From NCBI GenBank assembly GCA_041391785.1, contig JAWKNI010000007.1, positions 144,556 through 208,555 of the forward strand: 64,000 nucleotides of DNA. Direction: 5' to 3'. Source of the stretch: Flavobacteriales bacterium. GTDB taxonomy: Bacteria > Bacteroidota > Bacteroidia > Flavobacteriales_F > PHOS-HE28. The notes beneath the pieces are model-generated. The model saw only the letters and a program-made list of their open reading frames with translations, made no database searches and was not told where the DNA came from. The number at the start of each line of letters is the position of its first letter. The stretch's first letter is position 1. Both the position numbers and the translations under genes were made by a program. Of this stretch, positions 1 through 49,485 are shown in pieces.

Positions 1-2890
1 ATACCCATATCCTGTTGTGCCGACGTTACCTCCATTGGTCACGACCGTGGCGGTGCCGTCGCACGCCGCGAAGCAGATGGCATCGGTCACGGTGACGATC
101 GGTATGATCGCATCCGTGAAGATCACGGTCACCGTGTCCTCTGCTGCGCATCCATCGGGTGAGGTCACGCTCCATGTCAGCACATAGGCACCGCCGCTGC
201 TTGCGACCACGCCTGTGGTGGGTGCTGAAGCATCCTCGAAGGTGATGCCCACAGGTGCTGACCATGACCCTGAACTCCACGCACCTGTTGCATTCAAGGC
301 ATAGCTCAGATCACAACTAACCGCATCGGGTCCGGCATCGGGAGGTGCCACAACGAAGATGGTCGCTGTTGCACTGGCGCTCGCATCGGGGCATGGCAGG
401 ACGCCGAAAACCGTGTAGGTATACATGCCCGGCGGATCCGTGGACGGATCGAATGATCCACTGCTGGGCACCCCCCCGGGTCCGGTCCACGACCCGCCGA
501 CCATGGGGTCACCACCAAGGATGTCGATCAATTGTATCGGTGCCGTCTCCGGGCACAAGGTGATCGTCCCATCGCTTCCAGCGTCCGGCAGTGTGTTCAC
601 GGCGACATCGACCACGGCACTCATTGCCGGGCAGGGCGCCATGCCCGGAACAGTATAGGTGTAAGCACCTGGTGTGTCCTCACCGATGCTGAACACACCT
701 TCCATGCTGCCATCCGGACCGTTCCATGTGCCACCAATGTCCGGCGCACCGCCCAACTCACCGTACAACAACAGCGGCGGGTCGTTGGAACACAAGGTGG
801 CCGCACCGTTCGTTCCGGGATCGACGGCCTGAACAACGGAGACACTGACCAGTGCTGTATCGTTGACGCATGGCGTGGGCACGACGATCACATATCGGTA
901 GCTCCCTGCGGGATGCATGGAGGGGTCGAATGTTCCAGTAAAGGGTGCGCCGCTGGGTTGCAACCAGATACCGCCTGCATCCGGACTTCCTTCAAGTTCA
1001 TTGTTCAGGTCGATCGCACCATCGCTACTGCACAATGTCACGGACCCATCCTGGCCGGCATCGGCGTCCAAAAGCACATTCACATTCACCATGGCCGATA
1101 CCGCCGGGCAGGGTGTGGGGCTTGCCAGTGTGTACACATACGTTCCGTTCGGGTCCGTTCCCGGAACGAAGGGCCCCTGGAACGCACCATCCGGACCTGT
1201 CCAAGCCCCACCGGGATCAGCACCGCCCAAGGCAGGGAACAGGTCTATCGGATCCCCGCTCACACACAGGTTCAAAGTGGCATCGGACCCAGGGAAAGAC
1301 GCTTCGGAAAGGCCGACAGTAACGATGGCCATTGCGGCCGGGCATGGTGCGGTCCCGTTCACCGTATAAATGTGATCACCAGCGAGGTCCACTGCCGGGT
1401 CGAAGGTCCCGTTGAACACACCTGCAGGACCGCTCCATGTTCCGTTCGCCGAGGGCGTTCCATTCAGGATGGTGAAGAGATCGATCGGCGCACCTGAAAC
1501 GCACAACTGGATCGTGGCGTTCCCACCCGCGTCCGGCGGTTCCACGACATCCACGGTGACCGTCGCACTCACGCTCATGCAGGGTGGTGGTACGCTGATG
1601 GTGTACGTGTAAACACCGCCGGGATCGGCCGCAGGGTCGAACGTGCCATTGAAGGGTGTACCGTTCGGTGTGGTCCAGCTGCCTCCCGGGTCCGGAGAGC
1701 CTTCGAGGCGCTGGAACAGATCCAACGGGTCGTCGGTGCGGCACAACATGGCATATCCGGGTCCGCCTGGATCCGGGATGTCCACGACCGTTACGATGAC
1801 CACAGCGGCATCATCCGGGCACGGTGCGGTTCCGGTCACAGTGTAGGTATATGCGCCAGGTGGCATTGAGGCCGGATCGAACAACCCACCGGGGATCGGT
1901 ACCGGGCCACTCCAAGTCCCGCTGGACTGCGGCGATCCGCCCAGCGCCGTGAAGAGATCGGCGGTAGGGCTGCTGATGCACTGCGTGGTGCTGCCGTCAT
2001 CACCGGCGTCCGGAGCTTGCACAACGTTCACTGTCACCGTAGAGCTCACATTCACGCAAGGAGGGGGCACATTGATCGTGTAGGTGTAAATGCCACCGAT
2101 CATCGTTGCCGGGTCGAACATGCCGCCTATCACAGCGCTCGGGCCGCTCCACGATCCACCTGCATCCGGGGTCCCTCCAAGCTCGCTGTACAGATCGATC
2201 GGCGTGTTGCTCGCGCACAATGTTGAATTCCCCGGTGTACCGGCATCAGGTGCCGCGACCACATTCACGGTGACCGTCGCACTGGCGGAGGGGCAGGGAG
2301 CAGAACCGATCACCGTGTAGGTGTAGTCACCGGCGGTCATCGTGGCCGGATCGAAGAGCCCACCGATCACCGGTGAAGGTCCGGACCATGATCCACCGGC
2401 ATCCGGCGTGCCGTTCAGCGCGGCGAACAGGGAGGCGGAAGGACCGCTGATGCACAATGTGAGCGAACCATCCGTGCCTGCATCCGGTGGTTGCACAAGG
2501 GTGATCGTCACGGTGCTGCTGACGCTGGTGCACGGGGGCGGCACCGCGATGGTGTACGTGTACACACCAGCGAGATCCGCTGCCGGATCGAAGAGCCCAC
2601 CGGGCACGGCACTGGGCCCGGACCATGTTCCACCGGCATCGGGTGTGCCTGTGAGGATGGAGAACAGATCGACGCTGGCTGCGGAAGTGCAAAGCGTGAG
2701 TGCTCCGGGCGAACCGGGATCCGGATCAAGGACCACATTCACGGTGACCGTCGCACTGGCGGAGGGGCAGGGAGCAGAACCGATCACCGTGTAGGTGTAG
2801 TCACCGGCGGTCATCGTGGCCGGATCGAAGAGCCCACCGATCACCGGTGAAGGTCCGGACCATGATCCACCGGCATCCGGCGTGCCGTTC
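1..2890 (-). CDS. C-terminal continuation (partial; runs off window start) of the giant repeat adhesin. Uninterrupted frame of 79-aa Ig-like repeats, with a SprB-type repeat beginning at the window edge.
   Basis: Manual minus-strand translation is open from 2890 down to nt 1 (e.g. ...GAYTYTVPGMAPCPAMSAVVDVAVNTLPDAGSDGTITLC...; last residues DAICFAACDGTATVVTNGGNVGTTGYGY look like an SprB repeat). It is absent from the ORF track only because no stop lies inside the window. Repeats at 2281-2755 and 2755-2890 are spaced 474 nt (in frame). Confidence 0.7.
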
Positions 2891-4845
2891 CGGTGCGGCG
2901 AACAGGGAGGCGGAAGGACGCTGAATGCACAATGCGAGCGCCCCATCGGTGCCTGCATCCGGTGGTTGCACAAGGGTGACATCGTCACCGTGCTGCGGAC
3001 GACATGGTGCACGGGGGCGGCACACGATGTGTACGTGTACACACCAGCGAGATCCGCTGCCGGGTCGATCGAGCCCGCCGGGCACGGGCACTGGGCCGGA
3101 CCAGGTTCCGCCGGCATCAGGTGTAGCCTGTGAGGATGGAGAACAGATCGGCGCTGGCTGCGGAGTGCAAAGGGTGAGTGCTCCGGCGACCGGATCCGAC
3201 AGGACCACATTCACGGTGACCGTCGCACTGGCGAGGGGCAGGGCAGAACCGATCCCGTGTAGGTGTAGTCACCGGCGGCCATCGTGGCCGGATCGAAGAG
3301 CCCACCGATCACCGGTGAAGGTCCGGACCATGATCCACCGGCATCCGGCGTGCCGCCAAGTTGCCCCAGCAATGGCACGGGTGGACTTGTGCACATGCCC
3401 GTCGGTGCCTGCATCTGCCGGAGTGTTGATGGTGACGGTCACATCGGCGCTCTCATCGGGGCACGGCGCTGTGCCAGGGACGGTGTACGTGTAGACGCCG
3501 GGGTTCATGGTCGCTGGATCGACATACCACCGACCACTGCACTCGGTCCGCTCCAGGTTCCGCCTGCATCAGGCGTGCCACCGAGTTGCGCGAAGAGGTC
3601 CGCCGCACCATCGTTGGAGCAGAGGCGATCGCCCCGTCGGTCCCCGGATCGGGCGGTGTGTTGATCGTGACATCCACCGTGGCGGAGACATCGGGGCACG
3701 GAGCGGTACCGGCCACGGTGTACACGTAGGCACCGGAACTCATCGTTGCCGGGTCGATCGACCCGCCGACCACCGGGCTTGGGCCGCTCCAGGTTCCGCC
3801 TGCATCAGGTGTACCGCCGAGCTGTGCGAAGAGATCGGCAGGGGCATCGCTGCTGCACAGGGTGATGTTCCCATCGGTGCCTGCATCTGCCGGAGTGTTG
3901 ATGGTGACGGTCACATCGGCGCTCTCATCGGGGCACGGCGCTGTGCCAGGGACGGTGTACGTGTAGACGCCGGGGTTCATGGTCGCTGGATCGATCATAC
4001 CACCGACCACTGCACTCGGTCCGCTCCAGGTTCCGCCGGCATCAGGCGTGCCACCGAGTTGCGCGAAGAGGTCCGCCGCGCCATCGGTGGAGCAGAGGGT
4101 GATCGCCCCGTCGGTCCCCGGATCGGGCGGTGTGTTGATGGTGACATCCACCGTGGCGGAGACATCGGGGCACGGAGCGGTACCGGCCACGGTGTACACG
4201 TAGGCACCGGAACTCATCGTTGCCGGGTCGATCGACCCGCCGACCACCGGGCTTGGGCCGCTCCAGGTGCCGCCTGCATCAGGTGTACCGCCGAGCTGTG
4301 CGAAGAGATCGGCAGGGGCATCGCTGCTGCATAGGGTGATGCTCCCGTCGGTGCCTGCATCTGCCGGAGTGTTGATGGTGACGGTCACATCGGCGCTCTC
4401 ATCGGGGCACGGCGCGCTTCCATTCACGGTGTACGTGTAGACGCCGGGGTTCATGGTCGCTGGATCGATCATACCACCGACCACTGCACTCGGTCCGCTC
4501 CAGGTTCCACCGGCATCAGGCGTGCCACCGAGTTGCGCGAAGAGGTCCGCCGCAGCATCGGTGGAGCAGAGGGTGATCGCCCCGTCGGTCCCCGGATCGG
4601 GCGGTGTGTTGATCGTGACATCCACCGTGGCGGAGACATCGGGGCACGGAGCGGTACCGGCCACGGTGTACACGTAGGCGCCGGAACTCATCGTTGCCGG
4701 GTCGATCGACCCGCCGACCACCGGGCTTGGGCCGCTCCAGGTTCCGCCTGCATCAGGTGTACCGCCGAGCTGTGCGAAGAGATCGGCAGGGGCATCGCTG
4801 CTGCACAGGATGATGCTCCCATCGGTGCCTGCATCTGCCGGAGTG
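2281..4845 (-). repeat. Tandem near-identical 474-bp (158-aa, i.e. 2x79 aa) coding repeats inside the adhesin gene. Two families, units at 99-100% nucleotide identity.
   Basis: 2281-2416 is identical to 2755-2890 (136/136). Units at about 3640-4114, 4114-4588 and 4588-4845 encode the same 158 aa three times with 2-3 substitutions. More diverged 79-aa repeats continue on both sides (about 200..5330). Confidence 0.85.
2891..3640 (-). pseudogene. Frame-disrupted stretch of the same adhesin gene: at least four small indels inside near-identical repeat copies. Likely sequencing or assembly error, less likely genuine decay.
   Basis: The local copies differ from intact neighbours by 1-bp indels. 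Example: 3601-3640 vs 4075-4115 (agaggcgatcgcc vs agagggtgatcgcc). Example: 3515 (ggatcgacatacc vs ggatcgatcatacc). Example: 2891 (gccgttccggtgcggcg vs gccgttcagcgcggcg). ORFs 2801..3214 and 3269..3508 begin in the true repeat frame and then run into junk. Confidence 0.6.
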
Positions 4846-7736
4846 TTGACCAAAATGGTCAGTGTGGCCTCATTATTCGGGCAGGTACCCATGCCAAGGA
4901 CGGTGTATGTGTAAATACCACCCATGTGCACGGCTGGATCGAATCCGCCGGTGAACTCGGCGCCGCTAGGATCCGACCATTCGCCACCACCTTCGGGCGT
5001 ACCCCCGAGCTGCCCTTGCAATGGGAACGGTGCGTCCGTCGCGCATACCATGATGCTGTTGTCCGTGCCGGCGTTCGGCGGCGTATCCTCAGTGACCGCG
5101 ACCGTTGCTGTCGCATTCGGGCAGGGAGCCATCCCGGTCACCGTATAGGTATACGTACCGGGTGCATGCACCGCCGGGTCATAGGTTCCAGGGAAGGCTC
5201 CGCTTGGTCCGCTCCACGTTCCACCGGCCATCGCCCCTCCGCCCAGTAGTGGGAACAAGTCCTGTGCGCCATCGCTGCTGCACACGGCCAGGCTGGTGGG
5301 TGTCCCCGCGTTGGGCAATGCCGAAACAGCCACAGTTACGGTGGAACTCACCGGCGCACCGCACGCTCCTGCGCCTCCCACCGTGTAGGTGTAAACACCG
5401 ATCGGATCGACCCCTGGCATGAAGTTCCCTGAATGGGCCGCTCCGCCCGGGGCCGTCCAGGTCCCACCGGCCGTTGGCGTGCCACCCAGTGCTGCGAACA
5501 ATGCGGTGGCCGGGGCATCCGCGCACAGCACCACAGAGCCGTCCGTTCCTGCATCACCGGATTGATCCACTGTGATCGTCACACAATCCGTTGAACTGCA
5601 GTCCGGGTGTCCGACCTGATGGACCGTTACGCAGTACTGGGTCGTTCCCGACACGGCGGCGATCGGGTTCGCGATGTTCGGATCGCTGAGGCCTGCGGTC
5701 GGCGACCAGCTGTACACATAGGCACCGCCCGGGCAATTCGCCACACCTGACCATGCCAACCCACCTCCGGGCCCCTGCGGCGATGCGTACAGCACACCAC
5801 CTGTCGCGTTGAAAAGGGTATACGATTGCTCTCCGTTGTAGATGTTACCGGTGGTATAGCTCACGGAAATGGTGCTGCCGGTCGATACCGGGATGTTCAC
5901 ACTTCCCTGCGAGCCTCCTGTCAGCCAGTACGAGGTGGATACACCATTCACAGTGATCACCACACGCGAGTTGTTCGAGCCCAGACCCAGGATGCCGGTC
6001 CAACCGTCGTTGGCCGAGTCGTACATCGTAAGCACGTACGTACAATTCGTGGGGAACCCGCCACTGACCACGCTTGCACCCAGCTGCACCGGCGTATTGC
6101 AGGTGCTCGCATCCGGTCCTGCGGAAACGACCGGCCCGGGGATGATGGTCACGGCGAGCGTCGTGTCGTAGTCACAACCGAAATTGTCCGTTACATGGAA
6201 GGTATAGTCGTAACTGCCGGTTGCGGGAGGCGTGACGCATGCCTGGCCACAATTCGCGCTTGTGCTGGAGATGTCCGGACCGGTCCAGTAACTGCTGTCG
6301 CAGGTCGCCCCATACACCGGTGTGAATTCGATCAGGTCGTCGTACAGCGAAGGGTCGAAGTCGATGCTCCAATCGCATACGAAACCATTGTCGGATGTCC
6401 ACAGGTCACAGATCTGCAAGGTCCAGGTGCCATTCAATTGCGATCCCAGCAGACCGTTCAGGTTGTTCAAGCTCTCGTAGGTACCGCTGGGCAATGTGCC
6501 GCCAGAGTTGTCCACCCAGGTGCCGTTCGTGGCCGTCGGACTGAAGCAATACTGAAAACAGGTGCCTTGCACATTGGGCGTATTGTCGTTGTCCACTGGA
6601 ATGCCCAGGAAGGTGTTACCTCCGTTCTGCTGATGCATCGTAACACTCTCGCCTGTAGGGCTGATGATGTTGACGACCAGGTCACCCATGTATGAATGTT
6701 CCATGTTGATGCAGATCGACAGCAGGTCATTCACCGAATTGAGTGTCTGGCCGGGGGCGAACTGCGTGAAGGTGATCTGTGAATCGAAGCACTCGCCAAC
6801 GTTGTCCGGCAGGAAGATGCCGCCACCCAGGTCCGTGTCCGGAAGTTCATTCCACGTTGTTCCTGTCACCACGCCATCAAGGCACAAGGTCTCACCCGCG
6901 CACCCGGTAAGGGTTCCCCCCGTCCCGGTGAAGGTCGGCGGTGTGCCCACCATGGTGACCAGATCCACGAGGTTCGTGCTGGCGCAGCCGTTGTCATCCA
7001 ACAGGTACAACTGTGCGGTGTAAGCACCAGGTTCCGCATACGTATGCGAAACGGAAGCACCTGCGTTGTTGAGGATCGTCCCATCCCCGAAGTCCCAACG
7101 ACGGGAGGCGATACCGAAACCGGGCGCGGCGAATGACCCACTGCTGTTGAATGTGACCGCTTCCCCCGGACAGATCAATTGCGCGCCGGCGCTTCCATGA
7201 GTGGCCACCGCCGTCGGGCGCTCGCAGGGCTGGTAACAGGTGATCGCTGCGGCGAATACCCCGAGCCCGGTGTTGTTCGAGTGAAAGACGATCGTCAGGC
7301 AGCCGGAGGGGTTGGATGCGGACGCCGAGATCACCTGCCCCTGCAGGCCATTGCCGGTCCAGTTGCCCATTGTCGGTGCCGCTGTACTGTTCCCATCGTG
7401 AATGGTCATGTTGTCGATCGGTGCAGCACCGTTCGTGGCCAGGTTGAAGGTGATCCAGTTCAGCGAGATGGCCCCACCGGGCGTATCCGGGCAGATCGTG
7501 TAGGTGATGTTCTCATTGTTCGAGTAGCCACCCGCGCCCTGCCCACCACTGTCCAACAGCGCCCCGGCGCATGTCGTGGCCGTTCCATTGAAAATGGTGA
7601 ATGCCTGGCCGTGGCAATGCGTCCAATGGCTTAGGAATGCCAAACCCGTGACCAGCAGGAACAGCAGTGGGCGCCGGTTCCGGATATTCTTTTGGAATAT
7701 GCTGTGGGACCTTTCCGCAGTGCTCTGGACAGGCAT
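3453..7736 (-). CDS. Giant secreted cell-surface repeat adhesin, N-terminal 1427 aa. Signal peptide, CUB-like domain, PKD domain, proprotein-convertase P-domain, then tandem 79-aa Ig-like repeats. Likely a T9SS type-B cargo whose CTD lies beyond the window.
   Basis: ATG at 7736 (the track's M1 at 7751 is TTG), followed by [38 protein letters not shown]...[10 protein letters not shown] is CUB-like. RWDFGDGT is [29 protein letters not shown]...[25 protein letters not shown] is a P-domain. Repeats follow of the form [12 protein letters not shown]...YTYTV..APCPD..A.V.VTIN. The ORF ends at 3453 only because of a frameshift near 3627. Confidence 0.8.
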
Positions 7737-7920
7737 TGTTCGCTTCCGCAACAGTGGTGGGAATGTTGAAAAGCGTGCGTAAAATAGTCTTCGTAACCGC
7801 CTGATCCACAGATGGGACCGCCTTTTGGACGAACACCCATTGGTTGATGATGGATCAAGGGGATCGAATGATGAATGCCTGCTTCGCGCAGGTGGAGTTA
7901 CCGATCATCGATCCACTGGA

Positions 7921-7946
7921 ACAAGAAAGGCCCTTGCATGAGGGCC
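7921..7946 (-). terminator. Intrinsic terminator after adhesin 2 (hairpin ggccct-tgcatg-agggcc, T-run on the minus strand).
   Basis: 6-bp GC-rich stem at 7929-7946. Minus-strand 3' flank is tttcttgt. Confidence 0.4.
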
Positions 7947-7969
7947 GTTCTTGATGATGGGAGGGAGGA

Positions 7970-10900
7970 CTACTTGACCAACGTCACATGGCCCACCAAC
8001 TCCTTTCTGGTCTCCGCTCCATCCACCTCGAAGCGTATGAGGTAGGGGAATACTCCTGGTGGTAGGATCTCGCCTCCGTTGTTTGCACTGCCCAGCCATG
8101 GCTGGTAGGGATCGGTGGTGGAATAGATCACCTGGCCCCAACGGTCGAAGACATACATCTCAAAATCACTGACAGCCGGCACGTTCGAGCTCATCCCCCA
8201 CGCATCATTGATCCCATCACCGTCCGGTGTGAATGCGTTCGGAACGTATGTGAAAAGAATATCATCGATCGTGATGTCGTGGCAGGTGGTGTCGACGCAC
8301 TGGTTCGTGTTCCAAGTCACCAGACAGACAGTGTACACCCCGGGTTCGCGGTCCGAGAACCGGAATTCGGTGTTCTGGTCGGTGGTGCTGAAGAGCCCCG
8401 CGATATCCCATTGGTAGCTGTTCGAGCCTGTCGAGGTGTTGAAGAAGCGGATCGTCGGATCGTTGATGTTCGCAGGGATCGGGCCCCAGGCGAAATCCGC
8501 TTCGACCGGTGGTGGGCCTGTTACGGTCACAGTGCCATCACCCGAACACCCATCGGCATTGCGGATCGAAACACTGTACACCCCCTCACAGGCATTCATC
8601 AATACCGCTTCCGGAGACCAGCTGGCCCCGGCATCATAGCTGTAACTCACCGCTTCGGTGTCCTGGATCTGTACCGTGCCATCACAATCCCCGGAACAGG
8701 TCACGGGTGTGCTTTGCACTGCATCGATCTCCAACTGCACAGGTTCCGAGATCACGACCGATGCGTCATTCGAGCAACCGTTGTCATCACTCACCGCAAG
8801 TCCGTAGGTGCCGGCGCACAACCCTGAAATGTCCATGAGTCCCGGGCCGGCATCTCCGTTGGACCAGGCATAGGAGAGGTCGGTCGCTGCATTACCACCA
8901 ATGACCGTGGCGCTGGCGGTTCCGTCACAGGCTGCGTTGCAGACGGCATCAGTCCATGTCAGGTCGATCACGATGGGGTCCGTCAGGGTCATTTGTACAC
9001 TATCAACAGTGTTGCAGAACGCACCATCGTTCTCCCGCCAGTAGAACCAATGTGTACCACCGCTTCCAACTGGAAGGGTCACAGTGGTCTGCGGAGCACC
9101 GGCATTTGCGAAGACAGCGCCCGCCGGCCCGGTCCATTGCCCCACACCGGTGTTGCCAGGGGTCGCATTCAGCCCGATGCTCAGCGTGCATGAGAAGTCC
9201 GGTTCACCTGCATCAGGAACACCGCAGCATGTGGGGTCGTTCGCAGGTATCACAGTGATATCCAAGGTCGCGTTCGCCACACAACCCGCAGGGCTCGTCA
9301 CGGTGTACACGTAAGTTCCCGAACTTCCGGTGGTGGGGTCGAAGGCATTGGGAATTACCGCACCGGTGGCCGTGGTCCAGGTGCCCCCCGCATCAGGGGT
9401 GCCGCCCAACGAGTCCGTCAGCTGTACGACCGAGGCCGTTGCACAGATGAGGAATGCAGCATCCGTCCCCGCATCGATGGAGGGATCCGGGCCGACCAGA
9501 ACACTGTCCACCACGGCGCATTCCGGATGGCCCACCGGATAAGCCGTCAGGTAGTACCAGGTCGGCGTCGTGGTATAGACTTCCGTGGTCAGGCTTGTGG
9601 GATCGGTAAGCCCGGTGGCCGGGCTCCACACGTATTCCGCAGCTCCGGTGCCGCCACCACAGGTTATCGTTCCGGAGTACAACTGCCCGTTCGACGGGCC
9701 ATTGCCCGATTGAAAAACGTTGTTCCCCTGGTCATTCAGCAGTATGAAGGAGTTCTGGTTGTTGTTCAACCCAAGTGGCGCACCGGTATAACTGATCGTG
9801 ATCGGAGCGCCGGCCGATACAGGTATGTTGAAGGTCGAGAATCCCCCGGCCGCCAGGGTGTATGTATTGGATGTACCGTTCACGACCACCATCACGCTGG
9901 CCTGGCCTAAGAGACCGCCCCATCCATCGTTGGCGGTGTCGAACAGGTTCAACACGTAGGTACAGTTGGCACTTCCGGCATTCAGCAACTGTCCGGCCAT
10001 GGGTTCAGGATCGCTGCAGAGAACGATGTCCGGACCGGCTTCGATCTCCAGCGGCTCCGCGATCGTGAAGGTCACCGTGGTATCGTAGGAGCAGCCGAAG
10101 TTGTCCGTAACGACGAATGTGTACTGATAGTCGCCAGGACCTGTGGGGGTCGCGGTAGCGCTCAGCGGGTCGTTCGGGTCAGTTGTGAGGAATGGTCCGG
10201 ACCACGCAGCCGAATCCGGTGTGGAGCCCATGATCGGAGTGAATTCGACAAGGTCCGGGTACAGGTCCGGGTCGAAGCTGATGTCCCAGTCGCACAGGGA
10301 GCCATCATCCGCGGCCCACAGGTCCACCACGGTGAACGTCCAGGTGCCATTCAATGGGCAACCAACGAAACCGTTCATCGGATTCTCGCTCTCGTAGGTC
10401 CCGGCCGGAAGGGTGATGTTCCCACCGTTGTCGTCCCAAGTGCCATTCGTCGCACTCGGGCTCCAGCAATATTCCCAGCACGTGCCGATCGTTCCGGTGC
10501 TGGGGTCGCCAAGATCCATTCCACCCCCTCCTTGTTGTGTGAAGGTGACGGATTGCCCGTTCGGACAACTCGCAGAGATCACCAGGTCCCCTACGAACGT
10601 GTGCTCTAAACTGGCGCAGATGGTCAACAGGTCGTTCACATCGAGCAACGTCTGCCCTGGGTCGAACTGCGTGAATACGATCTCGCTGGTGAAGGGCACG
10701 CCCTGCAGGTCCGGCAATTGGACCGAAGGCCCGAAGTTGTTCTCCGGTTCGCTGGACCATGTGGTGCCCGCTACTACGGCGGTGAGGTCGATGGTCGCAC
10801 CCAGACAGGTCTCGGTACTGCCCACCGTTCCTTCAAAGGTCGGTGTCGTGCTCACCAGTACCTGCAGGTCCACCAACTCGGAACTGACGCAGTTGTTGTC

Positions 10901-11587
10901 ATCCAACAAGGTCAACTGCACCACATATTCGCCCGGCTCGCTGAAGGAGTGTTGTGCATTCTGTGTGGAAGCGGTCGTGCCATCGTCGAAATCCCAGGTG
11001 TATTGGGTGATGTTGAAACCCATGGCGGCGAATGAGCCGGAACCATCGAACGAAACGACCTCATCAGTGCATACCAAAGCGGGTGCGGCTTCACTCATGA
11101 ACGCGACCGGTATCGGCCGCTCACACGGCTCGTAACACGTGATCACCGCAGCGAATACCCCGGTGCCCGTGTTGTTGGATGTGAATTGCACGGTAAGGCA
11201 ACCGGTCGGGTTCGTGGACGACCCGGAAGTGACCTGCCCCTGGAGGGAATTGCCACTGTAATCCCCGATCAACGGGGCGCTCGTGTTGTCCCCATCATAG
11301 ACCCGGATATGGTCGATCGGTGCTGTCCCGGCAGTGCTCAGGTTGGCGGTGATCCATTGCAAGGAGATCGCACCACCAGGTGTATCCGGACAAACGACAG
11401 CGGTGTAATTCTCATTGTTCCCATATCCACCTGCGCCCTGTCCACCGCTATCCAACAAGGCCCCTTCACAGGCATTTATCGCACCCTGATCGATCTGGTA
11501 GGTGGTCTGGGCCACAAGTTGGGTCGTGGCTGCAAATACCAGCACCGATGGAAAGATGCCTCGCAATTGGAATATCCGCTCGATCAT
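7970..11587 (-). CDS. T9SS type-B-sorted SprB-repeat adhesin (1205 aa). Signal peptide, CUB-like domain, PKD domain, P-domain, SprB repeats, and a gliding-motility-type C-terminal domain.
   Basis: ATG at 11587: MIERIFQLRGIFPSVLVFAATTQLVAQ is a signal peptide (the upstream 53 codons of the track ORF are unlikely). The N-terminal 350 aa are paralogous to the 3453..7736 protein ([17 protein letters not shown]...ITCYEPCERP, YTWDFDDGT, and the P-domain ...GTWTFTVVDLWAADDGSLCDWDISF). SprB repeats are present (DLSYAWSNGDAGPG...CAGTYGLAVSDDNGC). The C-terminus VPNAFTPDGDGINDAWG...FEMYVFDRWGQVIYST matches the T9SS type-B CTD (TIGR04131-like). Confidence 0.85.
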   Translation of the reverse strand: MIERIFQLRGIFPSVLVFAATTQLVAQTTYQIDQGAINACEGALLDSGGQGAGGYGNNENYTAVVCPDTPGGAISLQWITANLSTAGTAPIDHIRVYDGDNTSAPLIGDYSGNSLQGQVTSGSSTNPTGCLTVQFTSNNTGTGVFAAVITCYEPCERPIPVAFMSEAAPALVCTDEVVSFDGSGSFAAMGFNITQYTWDFDDGTTASTQNAQHSFSEPGEYVVQLTLLDDNNCVSSELVDLQVLVSTTPTFEGTVGSTETCLGATIDLTAVVAGTTWSSEPENNFGPSVQLPDLQGVPFTSEIVFTQFDPGQTLLDVNDLLTICASLEHTFVGDLVISASCPNGQSVTFTQQGGGGMDLGDPSTGTIGTCWEYCWSPSATNGTWDDNGGNITLPAGTYESENPMNGFVGCPLNGTWTFTVVDLWAADDGSLCDWDISFDPDLYPDLVEFTPIMGSTPDSAAWSGPFLTTDPNDPLSATATPTGPGDYQYTFVVTDNFGCSYDTTVTFTIAEPLEIEAGPDIVLCSDPEPMAGQLLNAGSANCTYVLNLFDTANDGWGGLLGQASVMVVVNGTSNTYTLAAGGFSTFNIPVSAGAPITISYTGAPLGLNNNQNSFILLNDQGNNVFQSGNGPSNGQLYSGTITCGGGTGAAEYVWSPATGLTDPTSLTTEVYTTTPTWYYLTAYPVGHPECAVVDSVLVGPDPSIDAGTDAAFLICATASVVQLTDSLGGTPDAGGTWTTATGAVIPNAFDPTTGSSGTYVYTVTSPAGCVANATLDITVIPANDPTCCGVPDAGEPDFSCTLSIGLNATPGNTGVGQWTGPAGAVFANAGAPQTTVTLPVGSGGTHWFYWRENDGAFCNTVDSVQMTLTDPIVIDLTWTDAVCNAACDGTASATVIGGNAATDLSYAWSNGDAGPGLMDISGLCAGTYGLAVSDDNGCSNDASVVISEPVQLEIDAVQSTPVTCSGDCDGTVQIQDTEAVSYSYDAGASWSPEAVLMNACEGVYSVSIRNADGCSGDGTVTVTGPPPVEADFAWGPIPANINDPTIRFFNTSTGSNSYQWDIAGLFSTTDQNTEFRFSDREPGVYTVCLVTWNTNQCVDTTCHDITIDDILFTYVPNAFTPDGDGINDAWGMSSNVPAVSDFEMYVFDRWGQVIYSTTDPYQPWLGSANNGGEILPPGVFPYLIRFEVDGAETRKELVGHVTLVK

Positions 11588-11701
11588 GAATGTCTTTCGA
11601 TGTATCCGGCACGTGCCGATGGGTGCAAAGATCGCCGCCCATGGCGACTCGTTCGTGTTGGTTCTGCCGTTAGGATGGGATCCCAACACAATTGGTTGCC
11701 T

Positions 11702-11737
11702 CACAAAAACGAAAAGAGCCCGGAATGCCGGACTCTT
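11702..11737 (-). terminator. Imperfect hairpin plus T-run downstream of the anti-sigma-like gene (possible attenuator ahead of adhesin 2).
   Basis: agagcccgg-aatg-ccggactct is a 9-bp stem with one mismatch. Minus-strand 3' flank is ttcgtttttg. Confidence 0.35.
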
Positions 11738-11758
11738 CTCGATCAATTCGTGATCGGC

Positions 11759-13012
11759 TCAGCGCAGCAGGCCGATCGTACCGTTGTATGATCCCCCGAG
11801 TTTTTCGCCGTCCTTCATTTCAACCATCCACATGTAGTCGCCAGTGGCACACATCTCGCCACGGTTGCCGATGCGCCCGTTCCACGGACGGGTGTGGTCG
11901 GAGGTCTCGTACACGAGCTGGCCGCTCTTCGCGTCGAAGATCGACAGGTGGAACTTGACCCCGAGGGTCTTCAAGGCCTCTGGGATGAACACATCCTCCA
12001 GACCATCTCCATTCGGGGAGAACGTGTCCTGCGCCAGAAGGTCATAATCATTATCGATCTTGATCTTCTGTTCGAACCGGTCCACGCAGCCGTTCTCATT
12101 CGTCACGGTCAGGGACACGGTGTAGGACCCTTTCTTCTTGAAGACATGGTCCGGATGGGCGATCGTTGAGGAAGTGCCATCCCCGAAGTCCCAGACGTGA
12201 TCGTGCCCGCCCTGGCTGCGGTTCTCGAAATGAACGGACGGGACCGTGTTGTCGTACTCCTGTTTCAAATGATTGAAGGCCGCATCGGGTGCTTCATGGA
12301 TCACGATCAGGTCAGAGGCGGGTTTGTTCTGGATATTGCCACCACCCATGGAGGAGTGGGACAGCATCACCTCGTACTTGCCGGCCTTGCTGAAGGTGTG
12401 CGAGGGCTTGGGCTTGTTCGAGAAACTGCCGTCACCGAAGTTCCAAAGGTGCATTCCGGTCCTGGGCATGTTCTCCACATCGAATTCGATGGTGGTACCG
12501 GGGCAACCTTCGGTGACACTGGGGCGGATCGAAACGGCCGTGCTCGCAGCCTCGGGTCCATCCGGACCGTCCGTGCCTGTGATCGCGGTCACCGCTACCG
12601 TCGAGGGCTTATCGTGCGACCCCTTCGATGGGGCCTTCGCCACGTCTTCATCGGCCGTGCTCATTCCCTCACCGGCATCCTTGGCCACCACCGGCTCTCC
12701 GTCCGCACTGCTGTCCAAGGCGCTAGGGGTCACAGACGCCGGCTCGATCTCCAGCTGTGGCGCCTGAATGACAGCGACCTCGCCACTGCCGACCGGGTCC
12801 GGCACCAACATCTGCAATGTGGTGGCAACGGCCAGGCCGCCTCCGAGCAGGAGGACGAATAGTGCCGCGGAAGAATGCCAGGAGGATCGCTTGTCCTCAT
12901 CCAGGCGTTTCTCCAACTGCGCCCAATCGGACGAGTTGTACGGCACCTCATACGGCTCCAAGGCCTCCTTCAACGACCGTTCAAATGCATCCTGACCCTT
13001 CATGTTCCTCAT
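11759..13012 (-). CDS. Single-pass membrane protein. 48-aa cytoplasmic N-terminus, TM helix, Ala/Pro/Ser-rich linker, two PKD domains, and a T9SS type-B C-terminal domain. Putative anti-sigma factor for the upstream ECF sigma.
   Basis: The start is 3 nt after the sigma-factor stop. AALFVLLLGGGLAVATTL is the TM helix. HLWNFGDGSFS and HVWDFGDGTSS are PKD motifs. The C-terminus FSPNGDGLEDVF...FHLSIFDAKSGQLVYETSD...WNG...GDYMWMVE is a type-B CTD. No ZAS motif. Confidence 0.7.
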   Translation of the reverse strand: MRNMKGQDAFERSLKEALEPYEVPYNSSDWAQLEKRLDEDKRSSWHSSAALFVLLLGGGLAVATTLQMLVPDPVGSGEVAVIQAPQLEIEPASVTPSALDSSADGEPVVAKDAGEGMSTADEDVAKAPSKGSHDKPSTVAVTAITGTDGPDGPEAASTAVSIRPSVTEGCPGTTIEFDVENMPRTGMHLWNFGDGSFSNKPKPSHTFSKAGKYEVMLSHSSMGGGNIQNKPASDLIVIHEAPDAAFNHLKQEYDNTVPSVHFENRSQGGHDHVWDFGDGTSSTIAHPDHVFKKKGSYTVSLTVTNENGCVDRFEQKIKIDNDYDLLAQDTFSPNGDGLEDVFIPEALKTLGVKFHLSIFDAKSGQLVYETSDHTRPWNGRIGNRGEMCATGDYMWMVEMKDGEKLGGSYNGTIGLLR

Positions 13013-13015
13013 CCA

Positions 13016-13615
13016 TTAGTGGAGCTTACGCTCCTGGGTAAGCAATTTCTTCAAGTTGTGCTTGGCCTTGGCAAGGTTGCTCTTCGATGTGCCGATGTTG
13101 ATCCCCAAAAGATCGGCGATCTCCTTGTGGGTCAACTCTTCGAATACGTAAAGGTTGAACACCGTCCTGTAGGCCGGTGTCAACTTCTGCATCGCATTGA
13201 TCACATCCGCAGGCTTCACCTCCCACTCCTGCTCCTGTTCCTCCTCCGCCAGGATATCCTCTTCATCCTGGTCGGCGAAATCCTCGATGCTCCGCTCTTC
13301 CCCCAACAGGAGATAGGAGTTCTTCGTTCGTCTGAAATGATCGATCGCCGTGTTCACCATGATCCGGCGTATCCATCCCTCGAAGGAACCGGCACGATTG
13401 AACTTATCCATGCTGCGGAAGACCTTGATGAATCCGTCCTGCAGGATATCCTTTGCCTGATCGGCATTCTTCGTGTACCGCAGGCACACGGCCATCATCT
13501 TGCCGTAGAACAATTCGTACACCCGCTGCTCATAGCGGCGATCACCGCGCAGACAACCATCGATCACCTCCGCGTAGGAACGCTCGGTGTTCTCCGTGTT
13601 GAGCCAGGACACCAT
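13016..13615 (-). CDS. RNA polymerase ECF-type sigma-70 factor (about 199 aa).
   Basis: Region 2 is ELFYGKMMAVCLRYTKNADQAKDILQDGFIKVFR. Region 4 is TPAYRTVFNLYVFEELTHKEIADLLGINIGTSKSNLAKAKHNLKKLL. ATG at 13615 chosen (MVSWLNTENTERS...). The track ORF extends to 13747 through poor sequence. Confidence 0.85.
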   Translation of the reverse strand: MVSWLNTENTERSYAEVIDGCLRGDRRYEQRVYELFYGKMMAVCLRYTKNADQAKDILQDGFIKVFRSMDKFNRAGSFEGWIRRIMVNTAIDHFRRTKNSYLLLGEERSIEDFADQDEEDILAEEEQEQEWEVKPADVINAMQKLTPAYRTVFNLYVFEELTHKEIADLLGINIGTSKSNLAKAKHNLKKLLTQERKLH

Positions 13616-13870
13616 CAGGCGTGGGCCGCTCTGCATATCGGTGGGTCTATCGACCGAACGAATGGACATGGATGACTGCAATGTAGCCATACTTGACGGT
13701 AAGACGCAAGATCCGGAAAAGGATGCCTGCCGCTTTCTACGTACCACTCCAGGGGACCTGCCAAGGTCGATCCCAAGGGCCAGCGGGATCGTTTACTTTC
13801 GTGCCGTCAAGTCGGTACATACGCGTACGGACAAGGATCTTCAACTCAATCCCTCAATCGTCAGTCAACT

Positions 13871-14938: not shown

Positions 14939-17200
14939 TCAACGCACCACCACCAGGCGCTGTGGAACGGAGATCCCACCGCTTTCCCAACTCACGAAGT
15001 ATACCCCACTGTTCAGCCCCCGCACGTCCATTCGTGTCAGGGCGGAGTTCGCACGGGTCCGCATCAATTCCTGGCCAAGTCCGTTGCGGATCACCCATGT
15101 GCCTGGGGCTGATGGGCCGTTCAACACAAGCTCCACGGTGTTCGTGGCTGGGTTCGGGATGATGCTGAAGAGTATTCCGGAACCATCTCTGGCACCACCG
15201 ACGCTCAGCAGGTCATCACTGCTCCAGTAGGACAGGCCGCCGCGCAGATTCCCGAGCACCATGTCAGGCTTGCCATCCCCATTGAAATCGAACAGGCAGG
15301 GCGCGGTACGCTCCCCTTCACGCAGGTCCATGAAGGTGCTGTCCAACAAGGTCCAGGTCCCGGTGGGGTCCTCCTCGATGCTTCCATAGTGGTACAACCA
15401 TCCGGATTCAGAGCCAAGTAGCATTTCCCGGTCACCGTCCACATTCCGGAAGAGTGCGGGCACGGAGTGGCCGGTCACGTTCGGTGCGACCACGGTCAGC
15501 ACACCACCAAGATCCTCCGTGATCAAGGTCCAGGTCGGTGCACTGGCCGAACCGGTATTGCGGTAGTAGTTCAGGTTCCCGTTCCGCTCGCCAATGATCA
15601 GGTCCTGCAGGCCATCCTCGTCGAGATCGGTGAACAATGGAGTCGCGAACTGACCCACATCGATCGCATCCCCAGTGCCGTCAACCACGTTGGCCTGTGC
15701 CAGTTGGAATTGGGCCACGGGGCCTGTGCTGATGTTCCTGTAGAAATGTATGCGACCCAGCAGGTCGCCGATGTACATGTCCATATCCCCGTCACCATCC
15801 AGATCGCTGAAGGCAGGATAGAAGGATGATCCGATCCCGCTGGAGCTGAGACCCATGTAGTCATCCGTAACGAATTCGAAGGCTGGCGCCAGGGCGGTGC
15901 CCGTATTCCTGTAGTAGGCCATCCTTCCACTGTACTGGTCAGGAGGGACGAAATAGCCATAATTGGATACCAGCAGATCCATCCTGCCATCGCCATCGGC
16001 ATCAAAGGCCACCGGGTAGGCCCCTTCACCGTGTTCAAGCATACGGTCCTGAAAGAGGTTCTGCTGCACGAATTCGAAGTCCGGGGCGGCATCCGTACCA
16101 ACGTTCCTGTAATACCACATGCTCGCGGTGTTGTGGGCCAGCGAAGTGGCACTCGGGCTGCAGATCAGGTCCCGTCTCCCATCGTTATCCACATCCTCAT
16201 AGTAGGCTCCGGGGAAGATGGCCAGGTCCACCGATTGGTCATCGCTCGGGAAGTCGGTATCCACCGCGGTCATGAAGGCGAGGTCCACCGTGCCACCATT
16301 GTACAAGCCCACAAGGTTGTTGTACGCGATGTCACCGATCAATAGATCCTTGTCCAGGTCCCCATCCAGGTCAAGTGCAAGCACGGTGCTGCCCGCGTGC
16401 GCTTCCGCCTTGGCGATGGCTGCCGCGATCTCTTCGTCATTCGTACCCATTTCAGGTGCCGGTACATTCGGTGAACAAGGCGCGTTCAACTCCACCGTGT
16501 TGTTGTTGGCGTTCTCCACGAAGGAACCCCAGCACTTGTTCCGAAGCTCGAACTTGAGGCTGTCGCACGTGCCATACAACTCCATGCTCAGGTTCTTGTG
16601 GTACTCCATCAGTGAACCGACCAGGCTGAAGGTCAGCAGGTCGAGGTCGCCGTCGCCATCCACGTCCTCGATCGCAGGCAGGTCGACGGCCGAGACGTAC
16701 AGGTTCACCACCAACGAGGCACCACTCGGGGATACGTAGTTGGAGAAGGTGCGGAAGGGAGCCGCTTGTTCGAATGCGATCCCATCCGGTCCACTGGTGT
16801 TCTTGTATACGGTGAAACCCGCGCTGGTGTAAGCGAAGATGTCCTCCTTGCCATCGCAGTTGTAATCCCGGAAGAGCACCCAATCGTGCAACTCCTTGAA
16901 CGGGTGAACGTCATCGTACTCGCGTGAGATCCGATACGCCATGGGACCGCTCGCACCGTTGTTCAGGAGCGTAATGAAAGAATTGCCGGAGCGATCGAAC
17001 AGGAAGAGGTCCTTCAGGCCATCCCCGTTCAGGTCGATATCGCTCACTTGAACGAAGTTCGCTCCCCCGGCCCAGGCAAGGTCCAATGTCTGGCCCTGGC
17101 GGGTCACCGGAACGGACCCGTCGAAATAGAGGTTCCATTGGGCCTGCACGGCCACGGACTGGACCACAAGGAGCGCGAAGAGCAGTGGGTTCTTGGACAT
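14939..17200 (-). CDS. FG-GAP/VCBS repeat (integrin-alpha-like) secreted protein with a T9SS type-A C-terminal sorting domain.
   Basis: ATG at 17200: MSKNPLLFALLVVQSVAVQAQ is a signal peptide. Repeated FDxDGDGxxDL motifs are FG-GAP-like. The C-terminus SIIPNPATNTVELVL...GVYFVSWESGGISVPQRLVVVR is a Por_Secre_tail. Confidence 0.8.
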   Translation of the reverse strand: MSKNPLLFALLVVQSVAVQAQWNLYFDGSVPVTRQGQTLDLAWAGGANFVQVSDIDLNGDGLKDLFLFDRSGNSFITLLNNGASGPMAYRISREYDDVHPFKELHDWVLFRDYNCDGKEDIFAYTSAGFTVYKNTSGPDGIAFEQAAPFRTFSNYVSPSGASLVVNLYVSAVDLPAIEDVDGDGDLDLLTFSLVGSLMEYHKNLSMELYGTCDSLKFELRNKCWGSFVENANNNTVELNAPCSPNVPAPEMGTNDEEIAAAIAKAEAHAGSTVLALDLDGDLDKDLLIGDIAYNNLVGLYNGGTVDLAFMTAVDTDFPSDDQSVDLAIFPGAYYEDVDNDGRRDLICSPSATSLAHNTASMWYYRNVGTDAAPDFEFVQQNLFQDRMLEHGEGAYPVAFDADGDGRMDLLVSNYGYFVPPDQYSGRMAYYRNTGTALAPAFEFVTDDYMGLSSSGIGSSFYPAFSDLDGDGDMDMYIGDLLGRIHFYRNISTGPVAQFQLAQANVVDGTGDAIDVGQFATPLFTDLDEDGLQDLIIGERNGNLNYYRNTGSASAPTWTLITEDLGGVLTVVAPNVTGHSVPALFRNVDGDREMLLGSESGWLYHYGSIEEDPTGTWTLLDSTFMDLREGERTAPCLFDFNGDGKPDMVLGNLRGGLSYWSSDDLLSVGGARDGSGILFSIIPNPATNTVELVLNGPSAPGTWVIRNGLGQELMRTRANSALTRMDVRGLNSGVYFVSWESGGISVPQRLVVVR

Positions 17201-17361
17201 GATCGATCGATATTCCGGGCAAAGTTCGTCACTTTCACTTCCCTTCACCATCCATTCCAACGACCGTCCACGGGCGCCCAAGGTTGGGTGGTCCGGACAC
17301 CATGCTGACCAACTCCGGCAAGGGTTCTTCCGAAGGGCCCGCTGGCGATGGGCAACAACGC

Positions 17362-23660: not shown

Positions 23661-23740
23661 CCGGGGGCTGTTGGGCAATGATGGATCTGCTTATCTTCGC
23701 CCGGACCTCAAAAAGAACGGACCATTTTCATCACCACCAG

Positions 23741-31707: not shown

Positions 31708-32655
31708 ATGGGAGGAGGCTTCAAACCACGCAGTGAACACTTCAAGGACCTGCTTTCACTGCACACCGGTGAACGGCGCGGTTTTCTGGTGCTTTGTGCC
31801 ATATTGTTGCTCCTTTCCTGTATCGCCGCGTACCTGAAGTTCTGGTATCGCCCCCCACCAGCGGACCTTGCTTCCTTGCACGCGGAGATGGAAGCATGGG
31901 TCGCGATACGCAACTCACAAGCGATGGCGGATACTGTTCCGCAGGGGGAGCTCTTCCCCTTCGACCCCAACACCATCGAACGCGAAGCGTGGATGCGCCT
32001 GGGGCTGTCGTCCCGGCAGGTGGATGGCATCGATCGATACAAAGCGAAGGGAGGTCGCTTCCGTGTGAAGAAGGACCTCGGTCGCATGTACAGCATTCGA
32101 CCGGAGCAGTATGACCGCATGGCGCCATTCATCCTGCTGCCTGATAGCTTCCCAAGGCGTAGTCACCCGGCACGCGTGCCGAAGCAATGGGAGACCGATC
32201 GAACGCGGTCCAATGTTCCGGCGCCTGCCGGCCCCGCGATCGAGCCGAAGGCAAGGGTCGAGCTCAACTCCGCGGATACCACCGCCCTGATCGGTCTTCG
32301 CGGCATTGGCCCTGCATTCGCGCGTGGCATCGTCAAGTACAGAACGATGCTGGGCGGGTACACCTCCCTGGAGCAGCTTTCCGAAGTGTACATCCTAAGG
32401 GACAAGCCCGATGCGGTCGAACGCATCAAGGCGGTGATCGACCTGGACCCTTCCATGGTTGATCGCATTCCGATCAATACATGCACGGTGGAGGCATTGG
32501 CCGCCCATCCGTATGCGCGCTGGCACCTGGCCAAGCCATTGGTCGCCTACCGGCAACAACATGGCCCATTCAAGACCTTGGAAGAGATCAAAGGATGCCT
32601 GGTCATTACCGACAGCATCTACCTGCGACTGGTCCCATACCTCTCATTGGAATAA
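31708..32655 (+). CDS. ComEA-like helix-hairpin-helix DNA-binding membrane protein (315 aa).
   Basis: N-terminal TM (FLVLCAILLLLSCIAAYL). Two HhH motifs (LIGLRGIGPAFARGIV; AHPYARWHLAKPLVAYRQQHGPFKTLEEI). ATG at 31708. The 126-codon upstream extension in the track overlaps rfbD out of frame. Confidence 0.7.
   Translation: MGGGFKPRSEHFKDLLSLHTGERRGFLVLCAILLLLSCIAAYLKFWYRPPPADLASLHAEMEAWVAIRNSQAMADTVPQGELFPFDPNTIEREAWMRLGLSSRQVDGIDRYKAKGGRFRVKKDLGRMYSIRPEQYDRMAPFILLPDSFPRRSHPARVPKQWETDRTRSNVPAPAGPAIEPKARVELNSADTTALIGLRGIGPAFARGIVKYRTMLGGYTSLEQLSEVYILRDKPDAVERIKAVIDLDPSMVDRIPINTCTVEALAAHPYARWHLAKPLVAYRQQHGPFKTLEEIKGCLVITDSIYLRLVPYLSLE

Positions 32656-45159: not shown

Positions 45160-49485
<4,326 letters not shown>

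Follow-up and report, generated by a model that had tools for sequence, protein, structure and literature searches.

A membrane protein with a type-B-like secretion tag is a putative anti-sigma factor beside an ECF sigma gene and two adhesin genes in uncultured Flavobacteriales

A sigma factor, a membrane protein and two adhesins on one strand

We analysed a 64,000-nucleotide stretch (the window; G+C ~59%) from a Flavobacteriales bacterium (GenBank assembly GCA_041391785.1, contig JAWKNI010000007.1, positions 144,556 to 208,555 of the forward strand). Four genes at its start encode an extracytoplasmic function (ECF, group 4) sigma factor, a membrane protein, and two paralogous type IX secretion system (T9SS) cargoes, which we call adhesin 2 and adhesin 1 in the order in which they are transcribed (Table 1). 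The main interest of this locus is a probable family of secretion-coupled anti-sigma factors, to which its sequence suggests that the membrane protein belongs. An earlier note, written from the sequence alone, described a one-strand array with a 3-nucleotide (nt) spacer between the sigma and membrane genes. Both points are borne out by the calls of open reading frames (ORFs): the minus strand carries all four genes, and the membrane ORF begins exactly 3 nt past the sigma stop codon. The same note took the membrane protein for a third cargo or a partner of the adhesins, and here the evidence points to an anti-sigma factor instead.

The locus comprises three transcription units, not a single operon, because terminators follow both the membrane gene and adhesin 2. 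What had been called weak hairpins before the adhesins appear in a terminator scan as good intrinsic terminators, and a hairpin occupies the same place as the one behind the membrane gene in most related loci. The sigma and membrane genes therefore form a unit of their own.

The sigma factor contains regions 2 and 4 only (Sigma70_r2, 60.5 bits; Sigma70_r4_2, 53.2 bits; TIGR02937 superfamily, 103.9 bits; Sigma70_ECF also matches), with no region 3 or 1.1, and its size falls within the range of about 170 to 230 amino acids (aa) that defines ECF factors. The curated ECF equivalogs of NCBIfam, including the SigW, RpoE, and GFO_1088/PG0214 families, all score far below their cut-offs (NF058625, 80.9 against 130), and the 120 best database matches are 72 to 91% identical to the protein. 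Translation could start at the ATG at 13690 (224 aa) or at 13615 (199 aa). The former is the likely start codon because the promoter described below ends 10 nt before a conserved ATGGCT at that position.

Table 1. Features of the sigma locus and the adjoining adhesin genes (window coordinates).
Feature	Position	Strand	Details
ECF (group 4) sigma-70 factor	13016..13690 (maximal ORF 13016..13747)	-	224 aa from conserved ATGGCT start
Putative autoregulatory sigma-gene promoter	13701..13728	-	AGGCATCC-N13-GCGTCTT; position weight matrix score 25.1 of 25.1 bits
Membrane protein gene	11759..13012	-	417 aa; two PKD domains, C-terminal CHU_C
Cytoplasmic 33-35-aa motif, putative sigma-binding module, residues 7-41	12890..12994	-	FERSLK..LE.YEVPYNS.DWAQLE..L
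Single transmembrane helix, residues 47-69, predicted N-in	12806..12874	-	AlphaFold2 helix; charge distribution
Disordered periplasmic linker, residues 70-155, poorly conserved	12548..12805	-	pLDDT <50; variable, gap-rich alignment columns
Two PKD domains	12053..12535	-	PKD_4, 92 bits over two stretches; AlphaFold2 beta-sandwiches, mostly pLDDT >90
Type-B-like T9SS sorting domain (CHU_C) of membrane protein	11762..12031	-	CHU_C 43.6 bits, cut-off 27
Intrinsic terminator after membrane gene, ending the sigma/anti-sigma unit	11710..11741	-	14-bp stem, 8 G-C pairs, then TTTTTGT
Sigma-type promoter-like site 5' of adhesin 2	11673..11700	-	GGCAACC-N16-CATCC
Adhesin 2, T9SS type-B cargo	7970..11587	-	1205 aa after trimming to signal-peptide ATG
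Terminator-like hairpin after adhesin 2	7929..7946	-	6-7-bp stem, terminator scan
Conserved elements 5' of adhesin 1	7779..7833	-	TTCGTCCAAAA at 7833..7823; CTATTTTAC at 7787..7779
Adhesin 1, large paralogue	1..7736	-	~2870 aa in total; runs off window at base 1

The membrane protein and its motif family

Three parts of the membrane protein stand out: a conserved N terminus, a transmembrane (TM) helix, and a set of folded domains at the far end. The N-terminal motif is nearly invariant in an alignment of 31 orthologues and is the best conserved part of the protein outside its domains. An AlphaFold2 (AF2) model based on an alignment of 31 sequences (mean pLDDT, 71.6) places two short helices within it, at residues 9 to 18 and 27 to 39. 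The charges read from the sequence flank the TM helix asymmetrically, with K/R on its N-terminal side and D/E on its C-terminal side. The C-terminal domain (CTD) is modelled as a beta domain with pLDDT values of ~72 to 92, and it keeps the hallmarks of type-B sorting domains, namely FSPNGDG, PWNG, G.Y.W, and an LLR end. A Foldseek comparison of the model with the PDB returned generic Ig/PKD matches only, with fragments of Aureispira GhpA as the best, and was uninformative for the CTD. The protein has more than 1600 database homologues, of which the top 120 match over their full length at 53 to 66% identity, with one 100% identical. Its gene also stands where that of a class I anti-sigma factor is found, directly 3' of the sigma gene with the terminator only after the second gene, and the product is predicted to be single-pass and N-in.

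We searched the N-terminal 75 aa of the membrane protein against 1.84 billion representative proteins and recovered 120 that carry a ~33-aa motif (L..FEVPYN..DW..LE..L). The motif occurs in one to seven tandem copies ahead of a single TM helix in these proteins, and no Pfam or NCBIfam model matches the motif region. Among 96 clustered members, the C-terminal parts fall into three classes: 52 end in an outer-membrane barrel, 35 in PKD/CHU_C domains, and 8 in a PorP/SprF domain (Pfam matches: OMP_b-brl_2 in 39, CHU_C in 19, and PF11751 in 6, with E values down to 1e-23). An ECF sigma gene lies directly upstream of the motif protein in every genomic context read (one of the barrel type, four of the PKD/CHU_C type, and one of the PorP/SprF type), and the two genes are 1 to 15 nt apart or overlapping in all relatives examined. 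The most economical reading of these sequences is that the family consists of anti-sigma factors whose far end is in, or targeted to, the outer membrane.

Components of the T9SS type-B cargo/shuttle system appear in two of the three classes. In the smallest class (P0277, P0296, P0325, P0333, P0334, and P0356), one to three motif copies and one TM helix are fused to a PorP/SprF domain. The only context read for this class, that of P0277, holds an ECF sigma gene, the fusion protein, and an overlapping 214-aa gene with a weak CHU_C match, a gene order that is the mirror image of the window design. The barrel class (e.g., P0241, P0248, P0253, and P0255; locus L085) has one to six repeats by profile count and up to seven stretches by phmmer. 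In the sequences read, its TM helix is followed by a low-complexity linker of ~200 to 270 aa and a C-terminal outer-membrane beta-barrel, so that on paper such a protein is predicted to be one polypeptide anchored in both membranes. In the literature searched, which excludes most subscription journals, we met with no report of a T9SS CTD or a PorP/SprF domain on an anti-sigma factor, and PKD, CHU_C, or gliding-type partners go unmentioned in the ECF classification paper (PMC7826278).

Promoters, adhesins and gene neighbourhood

When the regions 5' of the sigma gene were aligned for 30 genomes, an ECF-type promoter emerged, AGGCAWCC-N14-GCGTCT(T/A), whose sequence has the AAC-type -35 and CGT-type -10 elements of ECF promoters. 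Its position weight matrix (PWM) finds a single full-score match in the 64-kb window, with a runner-up of 17.6 bits. We scanned 31 related loci, two of which lack a sigma gene, and every match of at least 19.8 bits lies 5' of sigma; an equivalent promoter is present there in 29 of the 29 loci that hold the gene. The same is true of the distant loci L086 to L088, whose membrane proteins are far more divergent (the L086 sigma factor is 51% identical). A more distant sub-clade (L018 to L034) has an equivalent GGCAACC-N15/16-CGTCT site 85 nt further downstream (near 9350-9380). The promoter thus has two alternative positions that differ by sub-clade, and some genomes have both. The proximal copy is degenerate in the window clade (~13650..13618, minus strand), where it falls within a ~25-aa N-terminal extension of the sigma ORF. 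A near-leaderless sigma mRNA would follow, since both positions put the ATG ~10 nt past the -10 box. Two weaker sigma-type matches lie elsewhere on the minus strand of the window: one at 32600..32572 (17.6 bits; its -10 box reads AGGTCTT), and one at 30104..30077 (GGCATCC-N16-CGTCA), which is probably a chance match because it is on the strand opposite the ORF at 29037..30458.

A related site precedes adhesin 2. The spacer that separates it from the membrane gene was footprinted across related loci and holds one conserved block past the terminator, GGCAAC(C)-N16-CATC(A), which has the same -35 box as the sigma gene's own promoter and is kept in 13 loci (as GGCAAC(C)-N16-CATCA) while the rest of the spacer does not align. 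The pattern GGCAWCC-N14-16-CRTCH has three matches in the window against 0.95 expected, and two of the three are the sigma promoter and this site. Of 53 adhesin-upstream regions in the related loci, 16 have the relaxed motif on the coding strand, against 2 on the reverse strand and a mean of 1.2 (maximum 5) in shuffled sequences, and nearly all of the 16 belong to the first paralogue. An adhesin gene of the cultured isolate DA487 is preceded by AAGCAACG-N15-CCGTCTC, and the second-position paralogue of locus L017 by GGCAACG-N16-CGTCA. We regard the adhesin 2 site as the weaker evidence because it was recognised post hoc, from footprinting and a relaxed pattern.

Both adhesins have, by inspection, a cleavable Sec signal peptide. 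Adhesin 2 combines a CUB-like match too weak to reach the Pfam cut-off with PKD, P_proprotein (P-domain), Cys-rich SprB-like repeats, and CHU_C, and its CTD scores above both relevant cut-offs (CHU_C, 56.8 against 27; TIGR04131, 43.2 against 35). Its orthologues occupy the same position in related loci and are 44 to 57% identical over the N-terminal module; a PDB sequence search matched only collagenase PKD domains. Adhesin 1 shares this module, as the earlier note had it, over its first ~700 aa (paralogous modules in related loci are 46 to 50% identical to each other), and continues into 79-aa repeats arranged in 474-nt double units that are 93 to 97% identical. The guess that adhesin 1 ends in a type-B CTD outside the window also holds up: P0369, which is 99% identical to its product, runs ~290 aa past the window start and ends in a CHU_C CTD. 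We put adhesin 1 at ~2870 aa with a type-B CTD because P0369 supplies this C terminus. At ~125 kDa for adhesin 2 and ~290 kDa for adhesin 1, only one of the two is large and neither is the megadalton protein once supposed.

Between ~3650 and ~2890, the frame of adhesin 1 has at least five breaks, a feature absent from the earlier note. Compared with neighbouring repeat units, there are two clean 1-nt deletions (~3626 and ~3522), then ~22 single-base indels in 460 nt, many of them in homopolymers, in a sequence that is otherwise 96.8% identical. These breaks are probably consensus or assembly errors in the repeat. We read them as artefacts because the 967 codons that follow are open and because essential rpoC (RNA polymerase beta') is likewise split into two frames (45190..46407 and 46457..49021, plus strand). 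The large adhesin orthologue in L091 (GCA_041391825.1, 4926..13900) forms about seven ORFs and is broken in the same repeat region, whereas that of L001 is intact and encodes a CHU_C protein of 3664 aa. A decaying pseudogene is less likely, as the indels are confined to ~750 nt of near-identical repeat and many fall in homopolymers.

Upstream of adhesin 1 lie other elements. A 16-locus alignment shows, at 7845..7823, the TTCGTCCAAAA box with a degenerate copy ~21 nt upstream and, at 7787..7779, the CTATTTTAC box ~45 nt downstream. Together they resemble the binding site of an activator combined with a -7 element of the Bacteroidetes type, and adhesin 1 seems, from its upstream sequence, to be driven by elements other than a sigma-type promoter.

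About 30 species of uncultured Flavobacteriales, as delimited by GTDB and represented by one genome each, share the gene order secDF, FG-GAP T9SS protein, mdh (divergent), sigma, membrane protein, one to three adhesin paralogues, and extra CHU_C proteins. The adhesin paralogues follow the pair in ~28 of 31 loci; L022 and L025 lack a downstream adhesin module. Gene adjacency alone proves little, because the housekeeping neighbours are equally syntenic. The cultured isolate Flavobacteriales bacterium DA487, whose membrane protein is 31% and sigma factor 62% identical to those of the window, keeps the pair together with a CHU_C protein and two adhesins behind a different upstream flank. Directly 5' of its sigma gene, where the clade of metagenome-assembled genomes has mdh, is a 133-aa stand-alone response-regulator receiver (L034, 8884..9285). 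The distant loci L086, L088, and L089/90 retain mdh and the sigma/membrane pair, and continue with SiaC, an M4 peptidase, or other T9SS cargo. The conserved core is thus the sigma/membrane pair, present in more than 30 species, and the adhesin neighbourhood is lineage-specific. The search for synteny that the earlier note proposed accordingly confirms the order of sigma, membrane protein, and adhesin in ~30 species and fails in distant relatives, which retain the pair with other genes downstream.

Two further T9SS-related genes lie in the window. The first, beyond mdh, encodes an FG-GAP/VCBS-repeat protein (14939..17281, minus strand) with a type-A T9SS tail (Por_Secre_tail, 28 bits); it is a neighbour in ~28 related species, and we saw no sigma-type promoter upstream of it. 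The second (23678..25750, plus strand), after glutamine synthetase III and ~10 kb from the sigma locus, encodes a 690-aa protein with TPR, WD40-like PD40, CarboxypepD_reg, and OmpA domains, in the order described for the T9SS component PorE. In Porphyromonas gingivalis, PorE partners PorP and the type-B cargo PG1035.

A possible link between the type-B pathway and sigma activity

We propose, with confidence evenly balanced between acceptance and doubt, that the locus encodes an autoregulated ECF sigma factor and a membrane anti-sigma factor whose T9SS type-B tag couples the state of secretion to sigma activity, with an effect that reaches adhesin 2. The anti-sigma factor would sit in the inner membrane as a single-pass protein, with a ~45-aa cytoplasmic N terminus in which one 33-aa helical motif would hold the sigma factor. 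Its disordered linker of ~90 aa would cross the periplasm and present two PKD domains and the sorting domain at the far end. That domain would dock the protein on the outer-membrane type-B pathway, either at the SprA translocon or at a PorP/SprF-type shuttle. The state of the type-B pathway would set the stability of the anti-sigma factor, probably through regulated proteolysis, and so free the sigma factor. Free sigma would transcribe its own operon from AGGCATCC-N13-GCGTCTT and, in the window lineage, probably also adhesin 2 from the weaker GGCAACC-N16-CATC promoter.

Several observations weigh against this proposal. T9SS cargoes normally have a cleavable signal peptide, and the membrane protein instead has a cytoplasmic segment of ~46 aa and a TM anchor. 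A class I anti-sigma domain comprises ~80 to 90 aa in a four-helix fold, often with an HxxxCxxC zinc site; the N terminus of the membrane protein has only ~45 cytoplasmic residues, two short predicted helices, and no zinc-binding HxxxCxxC or other Cys/His motif, and is not a classical zinc anti-sigma domain. The CTD of the membrane protein falls just below the TIGR04131 cut-off (31.8 against 35), so that the type-B CTD which the earlier note assigned to both this protein and adhesin 2 is confirmed for adhesin 2 by both models and for the membrane protein by CHU_C alone. The DA487 orthologue has no Pfam CHU_C match at 1e-3. No PorP/SprF gene follows the membrane gene or adhesin 2 or is present among 20 further window ORFs (a scan that did not cover smaller ORFs), and none follows the orthologous large adhesin in L091, where ferredoxin and molybdopterin-dehydrogenase genes are found. 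Such a partner gene is typical rather than obligatory, as 9 of 12 type-B cargoes of Flavobacterium johnsoniae have one (PMC12618676).

The sorting domains differ as well. The two adhesin CTDs are 45% identical to each other, but the last 100 aa of the membrane protein match them at only 27 to 32% identity. CTDs with a common shuttle in F. johnsoniae are more than 44% identical (PMC12618676). The sequences suggest that the anti-sigma CTD and the adhesin CTDs probably do not share one shuttle. We considered competition between the anti-sigma CTD and the adhesins for a single shuttle, which the same identity values counter.

The remaining difficulties concern the promoters. The strict sigma-promoter PWM has no match upstream of the adhesins, and the adhesin 2 site is seen only with the relaxed model; its spacer is 1 to 2 nt longer than that of the sigma promoter, and it reads CATC for CGTC. 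The site occurs in loci of related species, whose counts are therefore not independent. In most of them, a housekeeping -7 box (Bacteroidetes TAnnTTTG-like) stands just 5' of the site, and this box could be the real adhesin 2 promoter, although it is degenerate in the window itself (TTCGTTTTTGT). Alignment of 16 upstream regions found no sigma-type motif before adhesin 1 or its 15 orthologues. The coupling of sigma factor to adhesins suggested by the earlier note is therefore plausible for adhesin 2, with its sigma-type site upstream, and unsupported for adhesin 1.

An ordinary envelope-stress sigma/anti-sigma pair would account for part of this evidence, with the PKD/CHU_C-like region serving as a periplasmic sensor fold that does not engage the T9SS and the adhesins as mere neighbours transcribed independently. 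We consider this explanation unlikely, though it deserves serious attention. The whole neighbourhood, including secDF, FG-GAP, and mdh, is syntenic across the clade, and in distant relatives mdh and the sigma/membrane pair persist with different genes after them, both of which favour this explanation; yet the DA487 adhesins still lie beside the pair despite an altered upstream flank. Terminators isolate the pair, adhesin 1 has other upstream elements, and most related loci have the housekeeping-type -7 box before adhesin 2, but GGCAAC-N16-CATC is conserved within an otherwise unalignable spacer. The TIGR04131 score of the membrane protein agrees with a sensor fold, whereas CHU_C is well above the Pfam cut-off and the type-B hallmark residues are retained. 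The motif-sharing siblings also have a bona fide PorP/SprF domain beside a small CHU_C protein, which is hard to explain without a T9SS connection.

The idea of the earlier note, that the main job of the sigma factor is to switch on both adhesins as one module, appears quite unlikely. One to three adhesin paralogues do follow the pair in ~28 of 31 loci, but L022 and L025 have no adhesin module and distant relatives have other neighbours. Sigma-type sites do lie upstream of adhesin 2, a DA487 adhesin, and the L017 second-position paralogue, but the motif is found in only 16 of 53 adhesin-upstream regions, almost all of the first paralogue, and adhesin 1 and its 15 orthologues have a different conserved element in its place. 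That the membrane protein is a normal T9SS-secreted or surface PKD protein, co-transcribed with the sigma gene and bearing an unusually long signal sequence, is highly improbable: its PKD and CHU_C architecture is that of many T9SS cargoes, the domains are shared by more than 1600 database proteins, and the distant PKD-CHU_C homologues L035 to L084 mostly lack a detectable sigma relative directly upstream (L037 is an exception), but a highly conserved, charged segment of 46 aa before a 23-residue helix is unlike a signal peptide, the up to seven tandem motif copies ahead of the helix in relatives make the segment incompatible with one, and the motif is tied to an upstream ECF sigma gene across three unrelated C-terminal architectures.

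The favoured model, an anti-sigma factor tagged for the type-B pathway, has its nearest described logic, by analogy, in the PorA-PorXY-SigP circuit of P. gingivalis, in which the CTD protein PorA reports T9SS status to PorXY-SigP (PMC7712824, PMC12152298). In both, a T9SS-CTD protein would report on the secretion system or the cell surface to an ECF sigma factor. However, PorA is secreted as a cargo of its own and signals through a two-component system that stabilises SigP, whereas the sorting domain in the window apparently lies within the anti-sigma factor itself, and no PorX or PorY genes lie between the window sigma gene and the adhesins. The window CTD is also of type B, not the PorV-binding type, and the likely target is a cargo gene rather than T9SS structural genes. 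In the FecA-FecR-FecI system, an inner-membrane anti-sigma factor spans the periplasm to an outer-membrane transporter, and proteolysis frees an autoregulated ECF sigma factor with a small local regulon (PMC9249621, PMC11637429). An inner-membrane anti-sigma factor that reaches an outer-membrane machine and an autoregulated ECF sigma factor are likewise proposed for the window; however, Pfam/NCBIfam searches and inspection of neighbour genes found no FecR (PF04773), DUF4974, TonB box, or TonB-dependent receptor/transducer in the locus. The outer-membrane partner would instead be the T9SS type-B pathway, and in the siblings the barrel is fused to the anti-sigma factor. In the FlgM/sigma-28 checkpoint of flagella, a sigma factor controls the late substrates of a secretion machine, and its anti-sigma factor bears that machine's export signal. 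FlgM is soluble and exported whole, whereas the window protein, with its membrane anchor, would have to be cleaved or stay tethered. We offer FecR-type signalling and the FlgM checkpoint purely as analogies of function.

The adhesins and the sigma pair also have individual counterparts in flavobacteria. Both adhesins, and by Pfam the anti-sigma factor, end in a type-B domain, and the adhesins are large repetitive surface proteins like SprB of the F. johnsoniae SprB/SprF system (PMC12618676, PMC9143113). Orthologues of adhesin 1 carry SprB repeats (PF13573), although no Pfam match to the SprB repeat was found in the window proteins at E 0.01 or better. The N-terminal CUB-like/PKD/P-domain module is not that of SprB, and there are no sprC, sprD, or sprF neighbours and no remFG-sprCDBF context at the locus. 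By sequence, the adhesins are type-B cargoes rather than SprB orthologues, and they are orphans in that they lack an sprF-like gene downstream. The THC0290_1774/1773 sigma/anti-sigma pair of Flavobacterium psychrophilum resembles the window pair in being a flavobacterial ECF system that is autoregulated, has a CGT-type -10, and is tied to T9SS-related genes; there, SM6 ECF-type promoters drive T9SS genes, with GldN and PorU among the targets (PMC9723704). Those targets are T9SS components, in contrast to the cargo gene proposed here, and the architecture of the anti-sigma factor is not described in that study.

We extend the model to the family only tentatively, and doubt that it holds in full: the motif proteins may form an undescribed Bacteroidota family of envelope-spanning anti-sigma factors, with one to seven cytoplasmic 33-aa motifs and a barrel, PorP/SprF, or type-B domain at the far end, through which the cell would read the occupancy or function of the type-B pathway as sigma activity. 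To our knowledge, little is known, beyond PorXY-SigP-PorA of P. gingivalis, of how Bacteroidota match the output of T9SS cargo and of gliding or attachment adhesins to the condition of the secretion machine. An anti-sigma factor that carries a secretion signal, or is fused to a PorP/SprF shuttle, would be a simple and direct coupling device. With a defined promoter motif, a candidate target gene adjacent, and at least one cultured carrier (DA487), the idea is immediately testable. The uncurated 33-aa repeat marks putative anti-sigma factors across Flavobacteriales, and its recognition would improve the annotation of proteins now labelled "PKD domain-containing" and "outer membrane beta-barrel." If the model is true, the family would be a type IX counterpart to the FlgM checkpoint or to FecR-type signalling, and the window would hold a "cargo-mimic" version that controls a type-B surface protein.

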